A DNA stretch of 64,000 bases, taken from the NCBI RefSeq assembly GCF_053078305.1, contig NZ_CP166879.1; one strand, written 5' to 3'. The position numbers were made by a program. Of the stretch, positions 45,001-48,000 are shown in pieces; position 1 is the stretch's first letter, and each line of letters opens with the position of its first letter.

Positions 45001-48000
45001 ACCCGCTGGCAGCGGCGGCCAGGCACGACGGGCGGCAAATTACCGTGGAATGACTGGCGCAATGCCACGACCTGGCGTAAAGCGACGCAATTCTTACTAT
45101 TGGCAATGAATATTTATATTGCCATCACGTTCTGGTATTGGGTGCGCTATTACGAAACGGCAGGTAGTACGACATTTGTCGCCAGACCGGGAGGTATCGA
45201 AGGCTGGCTACCGATTGCCGGTCTGATGAATCTGAAATATAGCCTTGCAACAGGTCAGTTACCGTCCGTCCACGCCGCCGCAATGCTGTTATTGGTCGCT
45301 TTTATCGTCATCAGTCTATTACTCAAAAAGGCCTTTTGTTCATGGTTATGCCCGGTTGGTACGCTTTCTGAATTAATCGGCGCTCTCGGTAACAAACTTT
45401 TTGGTCGGCAATTTGTCCTTCCCCGCTGGCTGGATATTCCTCTGCGCGGTGTAAAGTATTTGCTGTTGAGTTTTTTTCTCTATATCGCGTTATTGATGCC
45501 CGCTCAGGCGATTCACTATTTTATGTTGTCGCCCTACAGCGTGGTGATGGACGTTAAAATGCTCGATTTCTTTCGTTATATGGGGACCGCGACATTAATC
45601 AGCGTGACCGTTTTGCTGATTGCCAGCCTGTTTATTCGCCATGCCTGGTGTCGTTATCTTTGCCCATATGGCGCGCTGATGGGCGTGGTTTCGCTATTGT
45701 CGCCGTTTAAGATTCGTCGCAATGCCGAAAGTTGTATCGACTGTGGCAAATGCGCAAAAAATTGCCCATCACGGATCCCGGTCGATAAATTAATTCAGGT
45801 ACGAACAGTGGAATGTACCGGCTGTATGACTTGCGTAGAGTCATGTCCGGTAGCCTCAACATTGACCTTTTCACTGCAAAAACCTGCGGCAAATAAAAAA
45901 GCCTTTGCGTTGTCTGGCTGGTTAATGACGCTACTGGTTCTGGGGATTATGTTTGCGGTGATTGGTTACGCAATGTATGCGGGAGTATGGCAAAGCCCGG
46001 TGCCGGAGGAATTGTACCGACGCTTAATTCCGCAAGCGCCAATGATTGGTCACTAAATTAGCAACAAGCGGAACATCACCTCGCACGGGGTGATGTTCAC
46101 AAAATCACATTATTTTGATTTTGACATCATAACTTTCAAGCCCGGTCATTTTTTCTCGCGCGGTGAAGCGAATTTCAGAGACTTCTTTCCCTGTATTCTT
46201 GTTCAGCTCGGCGATTTTTTGCGCGATAAAGTCGGCGATTTCCGTTTCGGCTTGTTTTTTTAACTCTTCAATATTCACTGTTAACCTCTTCTGGTCTTAA
46301 AAGACAGCAACACGCCAGTAAGGTGTTGGTTCCCGGTACCCTGGTCAGGTAAGAAATGTTATAAGCCATCTCCCCGAAAGATTCAATAATCAACAGGTTA
46401 TCGCTTACTATACATACAGCGTTGAAAAAAAATAAGACAGATATAAAAAAGGCTCCACGAGGGAGCCTGATATTATTTTGTGAAATCCAGCGGTGCATGG
46501 TCAGTGCGTATTTGTAGCGCGACGTTATCAAAGGTGATCATCGTCGATTTACAAAAAATACACTTAGCGCCCAAAGGGTTTCGCTCCGTCACATCGAATG
46601 CCGATGTGCGGTACTGTGAACCATGACAACATGGACAGCGAAAATGGAGATGTTGAGTAATAACGGCAACCTTAGAGCGTAACTACGTTCGCTGCCGCGG
46701 GGCCACGTTGCCCCTGCTCAATAGAAAATTCAACTTTCTGATTTTCGTTCAGCGTGCGGAATTCATTGCTCTGGATGGCGGTGAAATGGACGAAAACGTC
46801 TTTGCTGCCATCATCAGGAGTGATAAAGCCAAAACCTTTATCTGCGTTAAACCATTTTACTAAACCAGTCATTTTATTAGACATATTTTACTTCCTTCAT
46901 TTTGGGCCTTTCGGCAAACAGGGCTTTAATACAGAAACTACTTAGTGTTCAGGAGAGAGACTCAAAAGAAGGGGATAATGCCTGATAATGAGAACTGCTT
47001 TAGTAAACTACTTTGTATGCTGTCTGTCTTTCAAACCGACGCAGCTATTAACGCATGATAATTGAGATTAAGCAAATTTTATTTTAGCCGTCCGGCGGTC
47101 TTAAATATCGCTGGCTTTATTTTATTAACCCCGTATAGTGCAGCGCAGTATTTTCAGTAAGGAATTTGTTTGTCCCGTAAAATGACAGGAATTGTCAAAA
47201 CCTTTGATCGCAAAAGCGGCAAAGGATTCATTATCCCCTCCGACGGTCGTAAAGAAGTCCAGGTCCATATTTCCGCATTCACTCCCCGCGACGCAGAAGT
47301 GCTTATACCAGGATTACGCGTGGAATTTTGCCGCGTAAATGGCCTGCGAGGACCAACAGCGGCAAATGTTTATCTCTCTTAATATGACGCTGCTTGTTTA
47401 AAGCTGACTGGTTTTATTGGCATAGTTCAATAGTCAACACCATGTATTATAACACAAGTTACTTTTTCACCGGAAAACTAATCCATTTAACCGAATATCT
47501 CTACAACTAATAGTTATAAATGCCACTTAACAGCGAGTTATAGTACCACTTGAAACTATATTGCCAACAATAGTTAATAGCTTTCTTAACAATTTTCTTA
47601 TCTTTAATTTGTATTTTGCTAAGATTTATCTTATGCTCACAAGTCGTATTTCCAGAGGGAAATCGTTAACAATCTTATATTTCCCTCTGCGCGCCTTTCC
47701 CACCCGCAGTATATAGTGCTGGCGGTATGAGGAAAGGGAGATTTCACAAGGATGTTATACTCAAAGTAGATAATCCTGATCTCAAGCGTACGTATTGTCC
47801 ATGCGATGAATAAAGGAAAAGTTATGAAACACAAGCTTTCTGCAATCCTTATGGCCTTCATGTTGACGACGCCAGCTGCATTTGCTGCCCCTGAAGCAGC
47901 AAACGGGACCGAGGCAACGACGGGTACTACTGGCACCACAACGACCACTACAGGTGCAACTACGACTGCTGCTACCACTGGTGGCGTGGCTGCTGGCGCT

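Follow-up and report, generated by a model that had tools for sequence, protein, structure and literature searches.

An uninterrupted group 4 capsule export locus, gfcABCDE-etp-etk, between cspH and appA in an Escherichia coli genome carrying an Stx1c prophage

Gene content of the cspH-appA interval

The window analyzed here, a stretch of 64,000 nucleotides from contig NZ_CP166879.1 (NCBI RefSeq assembly GCF_053078305.1), holds a gfc locus located between cspH and appA, in a region that is colinear with three reference genomes. The cspH gene (47170-47382, + strand) starts with a TTG codon and encodes a cold shock-like protein of 70 aa (NCBIfam PRK15464, 176 bits, cut-off 141) that is 100% identical to those of both K-12 and O157:H7. 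The right-hand boundary of the locus is formed by appA (55658-56956, - strand), colinear with the gene annotated as appA at 15659-16957 in L003, the closest genome. Seven co-oriented ORFs are found between these two genes, all on the + strand at 47824-55538, in the order gfcA-gfcB-gfcC-gfcD-gfcE-etp-etk, none of them differing in length from its counterparts in K-12 and O157:H7.

The first of them, gfcA (ymcD, 47824-48129), encodes a threonine-rich protein of 101 aa, annotated as GfcA in matching genomes, which is identical to the O157:H7 product (100%) and shares 99 of 101 residues with that of K-12. It is followed by gfcB (ymcC, 48236-48880), coding for a lipoprotein of 214 aa (Pfam YjbF PF11102, 231.8 bits; 100% identical to O157:H7), by gfcC (ymcB, 48877-49623), whose product of 248 aa carries the GfcC N- and C-terminal domains (PF20616 and PF06251), and by gfcD (ymcA, 49623-51719), which encodes a YjbH-family outer-membrane protein of 698 aa (Pfam YjbH PF06082, 899 bits; 100% identical to O157:H7). 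In GfcB, GfcC and GfcD the Pfam family domains were matched near full length. GfcC shares 246 of 248 residues with K-12 and likewise 246 of 248 with O157:H7, with no gaps in either comparison.

The remaining three genes exceed curated NCBIfam thresholds. These are gfcE (yccZ, 51765-52904), encoding a Wza-like OPX export protein of 379 aa (PRK15078, 703 bits, cut-off 333) with the Pfam domains Poly_export, SLBB and Wza_C; etp (52892-53338), encoding a low-molecular-weight phosphotyrosine phosphatase of 148 aa (PRK11391, 333.7 bits, cut-off 247; Pfam LMWPc); and etk (53358-55538), encoding a BY-type tyrosine autokinase of 726 aa (PRK09841, 1596 bits, cut-off 1248). GfcE and Etp are 100% identical to their counterparts in K-12 and O157:H7, and Etk to that of O157:H7. 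Altogether, O157:H7 has the same amino acid sequence for six of the seven products (GfcA, GfcB, GfcD, GfcE, Etp and Etk), with two residues differing in GfcC. Family assignments by NCBIfam and Pfam are consistent with the gene names, as is the annotation of the colinear genomes. Comparison with K-12 and O157:H7 revealed no internal stops or gaps in the seven genes, in agreement with an earlier note on this DNA, which had described all of them as intact.

An operon with this composition (gfc, or ymcDCBA-yccZ-etp-etk) was reportedly described as the group 4 capsule operon of the EPEC O127:H6 strain E2348/69 by Peleg et al. 2005 (J Bacteriol 187:5259). In E2348/69, a carrier of the LEE pathogenicity island, these seven genes are likewise located between cspH and appA and their order is unchanged. 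K-12 also shares the gene set and the flanking genes, with proteins that are 98-100% identical. A related arrangement is the Wza-Wzb-Wzc module of group 1 capsule and colanic acid, with an OPX pore, a phosphatase and a BY-kinase paralogous to GfcE, Etp and Etk. Wzc (PRK11519, 1003 bits) and Wzb (PRK10126, 197.6 bits) were the second-best matches here, both under their cut-offs. Unlike the group 1 module, the locus has its best matches in the Etk and Etp models, includes the additional genes gfcABCD, and is not linked to glycosyltransferase or polymerase genes.

The cspH-gfcA spacer and its state among E. coli genomes

In the sequence, the last base of the cspH stop codon is 47382 and the ATG of gfcA starts at 47824, leaving an uninterrupted spacer at 47383-47823 (+ strand). 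With its 441 bp and an AT content of 64.6%, compared with 50.6% for the entire window, it corresponds well to the AT-rich region of about 440 bp reported in the earlier note. Alignment of the spacer with those of O157:H7, E2348/69 and a K-12-type allele from which IS1 had been removed gave 441 columns and 0 gaps. No match was found in the entire window when the K-12 IS1 and an IS3-family element were used as BLAST queries, and the alignment to K-12 and O157 disclosed no IS, indel or frameshift, so that the absence of an insertion sequence from the spacer, also put forward previously, is borne out. An E-value scan of 46500-48300 against Rfam found no RNA family between cspH and gfcA, and no tRNA genes were found in the entire window, including the prophage. 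The sole Rfam match in 46500-48300 was a cspA-type thermoregulator on the minus strand (46618-47040), upstream of cspG.

The position corresponding to 47791-47799 is taken up in K-12-type strains by an IS1 of 768 bp, flanked by a 9-bp target duplication, CGTATTGTC, which confirms that the K-12 gfc promoter region is interrupted. Comparison of the window spacer with the K-12-type locus by BLAST yielded two blocks (1-417 and 409-441) with 768 bp between them, and the junctions were read. The sequence that flanks IS1D as duplicate copies in K-12 is present in the window as a single, unoccupied copy (47791-47799, no strand assigned), 25-33 bp before the gfcA ATG; a 768-bp IS1 between two copies of CGTATTGTC, the mark of the interrupted K-12-type allele, is absent. 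Since the IS1D site is empty, nothing separates the upstream DNA physically from the ribosome-binding site of gfcA. Apart from IS1D, the K-12 spacer is colinear with that of the window once the element and one duplication copy are taken out, yet the two alleles are only 93% identical. The IS1 within the K-12 gfc/ymc promoter has already been published (PMC2516531, PMC12428005), and that K-12 carries it and wild strains do not has been on record since 2005-2008.

In regard to the wider occurrence of this arrangement, the spacer is present in 3,716 of 5,426 complete E. coli genomes, and the region is absent from about 1,700. The IS1 site is uninterrupted in 3,194 of the 5,426, or about 88% of site-bearing genomes, among them BL21 and isolates from soil, imported herbs (coriander), frog, mink and giant panda. 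An IS at the spacer site was counted in about 420-460 genomes (458 with IS1 in the spacer). Among the genomes listed, the IS1 allele itself is confined to K-12 strains and laboratory derivatives, and an ETEC O6:H16 strain has an IS1 of its own in the cspH-gfcA spacer. In some genomes cspH directly adjoins appA and gfc is missing altogether, as in many pathogenic B2-type strains.

Such a distribution bears on the proposal that a gfcA upstream region free of IS1 marks pathogenic lineages, as the earlier note had implied for this strain. The strain does carry Stx1c: the prophage lies at 1-30680 of the window, inserted in wrbA, and its stx1c counts as a difference from EHEC O157:H7. Because of this prophage the strain is a Shiga-toxin producer (STEC), on evidence that is independent of the missing IS1. 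However, an uninterrupted site shared with BL21 and with soil, animal and herb isolates, an interrupting IS1 allele limited, among the genomes listed, to K-12 strains and laboratory derivatives, a separate IS1 insertion in an ETEC and the loss of gfc from many pathogenic B2-type strains make a pathogen signature barely credible, and as a diagnostic the absence of IS1 is refuted by the population counts. The step from missing IS1 to pathogenic lineage is therefore invalid. As the uninterrupted state is found in most operon-carrying E. coli, it is ordinary and alone marks no pathogen; the insertion-free gfc upstream region is the species norm.

Conservation, candidate promoters and predicted hairpins upstream of gfcA

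Diversity among alleles and comparison with E. albertii divide the spacer into two parts. The distal part (47383-47594, + strand) is fast-evolving, with a pairwise diversity of 12-15% at 47423-47502 among 10 chosen alleles and a content that is largely unalignable with E. albertii. The proximal part (47595-47823, + strand), about 230 bp in length, is conserved from E. coli through the cryptic-clade Escherichia sp. MOD1-EC7003 to E. albertii, a pattern consistent with promoter(s) and a 5′ leader. Its last 50 bp or so before the gfcA ATG are invariant in all sequences, and diversity stays below 1% over the last 80 bp, where the single variant site is common to the window, G12 and E2348/69. Independent IS insertions occur in the proximal block of other strains. 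Also relevant is the restoration of the S. sonnei capsule by a clone "with its own promoter" that starts 293 bp upstream of gfcA, equivalent to position 47531 of the window (PMC4368438).

At the level of individual alleles, the best spacer identity was 98.9% and the best identity over 20 kb was 99.5%, thus the window matches none of the 5,426 complete genomes exactly. Spacer alleles are widely spread: identity is 95-99% in 593 genomes and 90-95% in another 3,028. The O157:H7 spacer, which also lacks an IS, is 98% identical without indels; it differs at about nine positions that are clustered in the predicted hairpins described below and at 47771 (GATAAT in the window, GACAAT in O157). The spacer of E2348/69 differs from that of the window at many distal positions, where the window is O157-like, and its proximal 140 bp are nearly identical to those of the window, with one position differing.

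The absence of a perfect match could be taken to indicate a cryptic point defect that inactivates the system, either a private promoter or leader SNP or one of the GfcC substitutions, two of which separate the window from O157:H7 and two from K-12. In EPEC each of the seven genes is individually required, according to the passage of PMC4368438 that cites Peleg 2005. On the other hand, each window variant in the proximal block is found in another natural allele (33F4, ECONIH5, G12 or E2348/69), the last 80 bp equal those of other alleles save for the one shared site, and GfcC is full length and retains both Pfam domains. Such a defect is very unlikely.

Two candidate promoters can be pointed to within the proximal block. 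A lenient scan picked out candidate A, TTGTAT-17 nt-TATGCT (47609-47637, + strand), which matches at 7 of 12 positions. The block shared with E. albertii has this candidate at its 5′ edge, and transcripts from it would carry a leader of roughly 180 nt. Candidate B (47753-47761, + strand), likewise from scanning, is an extended -10 element, TGtTATACT, without a -35; it lies 63 nt before the ATG and is unchanged in every E. coli allele as well as in MOD1-EC7003 and E. albertii. Both are weak matches to the consensus. A stricter consensus scan of 47100-47900 found no sigma-70-like site on the + strand and no intrinsic terminator, hence the promoter is not placeable by consensus alone. In the literature consulted, no mapped transcription start site of gfcA was found. 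The Shine-Dalgarno sequence AAGGA (47813-47817, + strand), 6 nt before the gfcA ATG, is invariant in all alleles.

Folding of the + strand predicted two hairpins between the candidate promoters. Predicted hairpin 1 (47653-47689) has an 11-bp stem, CAGAGGGAAAT/ATTTCCCTCTG, and a 15-nt loop; in 9 E. coli alleles 100% of its cells pair, with stem changes of A-U to G-U only, and in E. albertii the loop is changed and the stem kept. Predicted hairpin 2 (47694-47737) consists of an outer stem, CCTTTCC/GGAAAGG, and a variable inner stem; 98% of its cells pair, and the pair 47708/47720 is A-U, U-A or G-C depending on the lineage. When the 9 E. coli alleles were shuffled 500 times, 65 of the shuffled sets scored equally well, and with E. 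albertii and the cryptic-clade genome added, the covariation term of RNAalifold was about 0 (+0.52), with one compensatory pair. The modelled folds are thus suggestive of conserved hairpins in the gfcA upstream region, with overall covariation that is not significant.

An RfaH/ops (JUMPStart) element, GGCGGTAGnnTG, was considered and rejected: the only approach to it is GGCGGTATGAGG at 47721, with 2 mismatches, and matches of this quality number 55 in the window against 45 expected by chance. Moreover, most alleles have AAGCGGTAT or AAGTGGTAT at this position, which also rules out the ops reading. An exact-pattern scan of genome contigs with the invariant leader 20-mer gave 0 matches, and a GfcB protein scan of contigs recovered 5 loci, of which those in Cedecea and Citrobacter have upstream DNA without detectable similarity.

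It is a speculative and rather unlikely idea that 47595-47823 encodes a structured 5′ leader RNA, composed of the two hairpins and the invariant stretch, that gates expression of the operon. Such gating could work through Rho-dependent polarity at the gfcA region, which strongly stimulates Rho, or the leader might sense temperature or a small RNA. The roughly 30-fold gap in gfcA mRNA between EPEC and EHEC would, in that case, stem from natural allelic variation in hairpin 2 and at 47771, and the recurrent IS insertions would act as a natural off-switch.

Capsule export and its expression

The gene content, the empty IS1 target and the conserved proximal block are best explained if the locus is an ordinary E. 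coli group 4 capsule export locus, gfcABCDE-etp-etk, undisrupted by any IS and with its native upstream region, a reading to which we assign a probability of about 0.9. According to this reading, the proximal 230 bp or so would contain the promoter, either candidate A or candidate B, together with a structured leader, and transcription from there would drive the entire operon. Etk as the kinase, Etp as the phosphatase, GfcE as the Wza-like pore and GfcABCD would then export Wzy-polymerised O-antigen as a capsule.

An intact upstream region does not guarantee a capsule, because EHEC without an IS can show low gfcA mRNA and no capsule. In IS1-free EHEC O157:H7 grown in N-minimal medium, gfcA mRNA was about 30-fold below that of EPEC and no capsule was visible (PMC3853201); low gfcA expression or lack of capsule in IS-free EHEC under some conditions was also reported elsewhere (PMC10932389). 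It is possible that the locus of the window is likewise intact and poorly expressed, giving little or no capsule ordinarily, with a level that depends on the promoter or leader variants of the particular allele and on regulators acting in trans instead of on IS1. The O157:H7 precedent, the markedly different spacer alleles among complete genomes and the weakness of the candidate promoters all point in this direction. Conversely, the proximal 140 bp of the window share 5 of the 7 EPEC-versus-EHEC differences with the high-expressing E2348/69, and there are conditions in which even the O157 allele is expressed, as gfc-etk is functional in O157:H7 and needed for phage adsorption in four strains (bioRxiv 10.64898/2026.07.23.740414). 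Poor expression is, on balance, an appreciable prospect but the less likely one, and it is compatible with, not opposed to, an ordinary undisrupted export locus. Whether and when the strain produces a capsule depends on regulation and on the O-antigen cluster, both of which lie outside the window; no Wzx/Wzy O-antigen cluster is located within its 64 kb.

The value of the observation as a discovery is small, as the intact arrangement is the norm of the species. The population counts nevertheless mend a common shorthand: the presence of IS1 indicates the K-12 laboratory lineage, and its absence does not indicate a pathogen. For annotation, the result describes an Stx1c-carrying strain in which the export locus for a group 4 capsule is complete. 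This is relevant to resistance to complement and defensins and to susceptibility to phages whose receptor is the O-antigen capsule.

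The cspH-gfcA spacer and the operon downstream

The upstream region of the gfc-etk operon occupies 47383-47823, between the end of cspH (70 aa, TTG start) at 47382 and the gfcA start codon (ATG at 47824, with AAGGA upstream of it at 47813-47817). The earlier note described this spacer as about 440 bp of AT-rich DNA; its coordinates proved exact, with a length of 441 bp and an AT content of 64.6% against 50.6% for the window, rising to 81% at 47572-47634. In the K-12 reference used here (L001, the locus of a K-12-type laboratory strain, to whose cspH-gfcA interval MG1655 is 99.9% identical), the interval measures 1,218 bp, and the spacer aligns to it in two blocks, 1-417 and 409-441, with 768 bp between them. 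These 768 bp represent IS1 (IS1D), which has duplicated 9 bp of its target, CGTATTGTC; the window has this target in a single copy, at 47791-47799, 25-33 bp upstream of the gfcA ATG. BLAST searches with the IS1 from L001 and with an IS3-family element from the spacer of another strain gave 0 matches in the entire 64-kb window, and the spacer aligned without gaps to O157:H7, a pig isolate, EPEC E2348/69 and a K-12-like IS-free allele. The claim that neither IS1 nor another insertion sequence lies here is thus borne out, and the proposed alignment to K-12 and an O157 reference gives a spacer free of IS elements and indels.

The seven genes gfcA, gfcB, gfcC, gfcD, gfcE, etp and etk follow on the plus strand (47824-55538), and then appA on the minus strand. 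Etk, Etp and GfcE were recognized by curated models (PRK09841, 1596 bits; PRK11391, 333.7 bits; PRK15078, 703 bits), while Pfam identified YjbF in GfcB, both GfcC domains in GfcC and YjbH in GfcD. All seven genes equal their K-12 and O157:H7 counterparts in length and hold 0 internal stops or gaps, so they are intact, as the earlier note supposed; six of the seven products are 100% identical to those of O157:H7, and GfcC differs by 2 residues. A mini-ORF of three codons (ATG CGA TGA) is found at 47801-47809, and an ATG at 47806, where the mechanical ORF call for gfcA begins, lies in frame six codons upstream of the annotated start, inside an invariant stretch. On the other side of cspH and opposite to it, the minus-strand 5′ leader of cspG (46618-47040) matches the Rfam cspA thermoregulator (157.8 bits, E = 1e-42).

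The IS-free state and pathogenicity

Among 5,426 complete E. coli genomes, the spacer was matched at all in 3,716 and had no match in about 1,700. The K-12 insertion site was uninterrupted in 3,194 (121-bp probe centred on the site), and a K-12-style interval with IS1 was present in 458 (coverage at least 80%). Genomes with the uninterrupted site include BL21, O157:H7, O111 and O91, together with isolates from chicken, pig, mink, giant panda, frog, soil and coriander; among the matches listed, the interrupted site occurred only in K-12 strains and laboratory derivatives (MG1655, DH1, TG1, BW25113, O16:H48 strains, ER1709). In many genomes devoid of the region, cspH directly adjoins appA (e.g. 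NC101, an O2:K2:H1 strain). The IS-free state is not unusual, and the locus is the well-known, already described wild-type form of a well-known operon. Not one of the 5,426 genomes matches the window exactly: over the 20 kb of window 40000-60000 the highest identity is 99.5%, reached by pig and human isolates, and for the spacer it is 98.9%. The spacer of BL21 lacks an IS, while that of the B-derived T7 Express Crystal is the IS1D allele of K-12 (genome matches H11 and H164), probably through K-12 DNA introduced near sulA during strain construction.

Absence of IS1 is no indicator of a pathogen. The earlier note took the missing IS1 as consistent with a pathogenic lineage; such a lineage is right in fact, but the population counts invalidate the inference from IS1. 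Colinearity with ordinary E. coli chromosomes extends over window 30680-60000 and is lost in 1-30679, with the junction at the 5′ end of wrbA, beside a tyrosine integrase (29330-30664). Other products of the inserted DNA include anti-repressors, a RecT-like protein, a primase, a helicase and an endolysin. The Stx1 A (stx1A, 6696-7643) and B (stx1B, 6416-6685) subunits are encoded on the minus strand; their genes share 99.8% identity with those of phage phiSTEC1589-Stx1c, against about 96.4% with stx1a phages. Judged by its sequence, window 1-30680 is a lambdoid Stx1c-converting prophage in the 5′ end of wrbA, with a backbone similar to that of Stx phages recorded in wrbA. Because it carries this prophage, the source strain is a STEC, on evidence independent of the missing IS1.

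Conservation of the proximal spacer

Nine to ten E. coli alleles picked for diversity were aligned together with the K-12 allele minus IS1. Pairwise diversity among E. coli alleles amounts to 12-15% at 47423-47502, about 4-5% at 47543-47742 and less than 1% over the last 80 bp, and the spacer appears in these alignments as a steep conservation gradient with a hypervariable distal (cspH) side, where diversity reaches 15%. A GfcB-based scan with one genome per species added the cryptic-clade Escherichia MOD1-EC7003 and E. albertii. In the latter, with an overall DNA identity to E. coli of only 82% in the region, the distal spacer is heavily diverged and good conservation begins at about 47595 (~230 bp), and the final ~50 bp upstream of the ATG are identical in all aligned sequences, E. 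albertii included. Caboni et al. used a clone that, by their description, includes the operon's own promoter, and with it restored capsule in S. sonnei (PMC4368438); the upstream primer of this clone maps to window 47531-47552, 293 bp upstream of gfcA. The conserved block and the start of this clone therefore place the functional control region most likely at 47595-47823.

Two promoter candidates lie within it. TTGTAT-17-TATGCT (47609-47637) sits at the 5′ edge of the block, and transcription from it would produce a leader about 180 nt long; the other is TGtTATACT (47753-47761), an extended -10 that does not vary among the aligned sequences. Our own lenient scan produced the two, and neither is a strong match; a stricter scan called no plus-strand promoter in the spacer, and no mapped gfcA transcription start was found in the available literature. 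The urinary isolate TUM17668 carries a 23-bp spacer deletion at the equivalent of about 47622-47644, so that TATGCT, the -10 of the first candidate, is lost along with the bases immediately downstream.

RNA from 47640-47830 folds better than 200 of 200 shuffles (z = -4.5), and its two local hairpins (47653-47689, 47694-47737) recur in the folds of all alleles. Changes in the stems nearly all preserve structure (A-U/G-U, C-G/U-G), and the pair 47708/47720 is A-U, U-A or G-C depending on the lineage. Stem-conservation statistics are weak, as 65 of 500 shuffles were equally good and the RNAalifold covariation term was about zero and not significant. A regulatory leader RNA upstream of gfcA may be considered as a possibility, not a finding. 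Rfam recognized no known RNA family in the spacer, and an RfaH ops motif at 47721 was rejected, being a match at chance level and missing from most alleles.

Capsule expression and recurrent insertions

An intact upstream region, read in the earlier note as consistent with an ability to make O-antigen capsule, does not necessarily lead to capsule. Comparing two IS-free strains, Thomassin et al. reported about 30-fold less gfcA mRNA in EHEC than in EPEC, and no visible capsule on EHEC in N-minimal medium (PMC3853201). In O157:H7, adsorption of eleven phages needs gfc-etk (bioRxiv 10.64898/2026.07.23.740414). Compared with O157:H7 and EPEC E2348/69, the spacer is a mosaic with an O157:H7-like distal part; in the proximal 140 bp, five of the seven EPEC-EHEC differences are common to the window and E2348/69, and both have GATAAT at 47769-47774, where EHEC O157:H7 has GACAAT. 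The O-antigen cluster, which supplies the polymer, is outside the 64-kb window.

K-12 etk is expressed under some conditions, IS1 notwithstanding. A genomic SELEX study lists TGGAGA-18-TACACT as the 'gfcA promoter', and this sequence is located within the right IS1 terminus facing gfcA (L001 10364-10393); a promoter in the IS1 terminus could be the source of the residual expression.

The proximal block was also interrupted independently in other natural isolates. An O6:H16 ETEC has IS1 at the equivalent of 47622-47630, and chicken isolate 58-3 has an IS3-family element at about 47660; in environmental strain 61, which has a second IS1 in gfcD, IS1 lies at 47769-47776. Counting the K-12 IS1D (47791-47799), four separate insertion events fall inside 180 bp of the proximal spacer, a pattern suggesting that IS elements repeatedly target this conserved control region or that insertion here serves as a natural off-switch.
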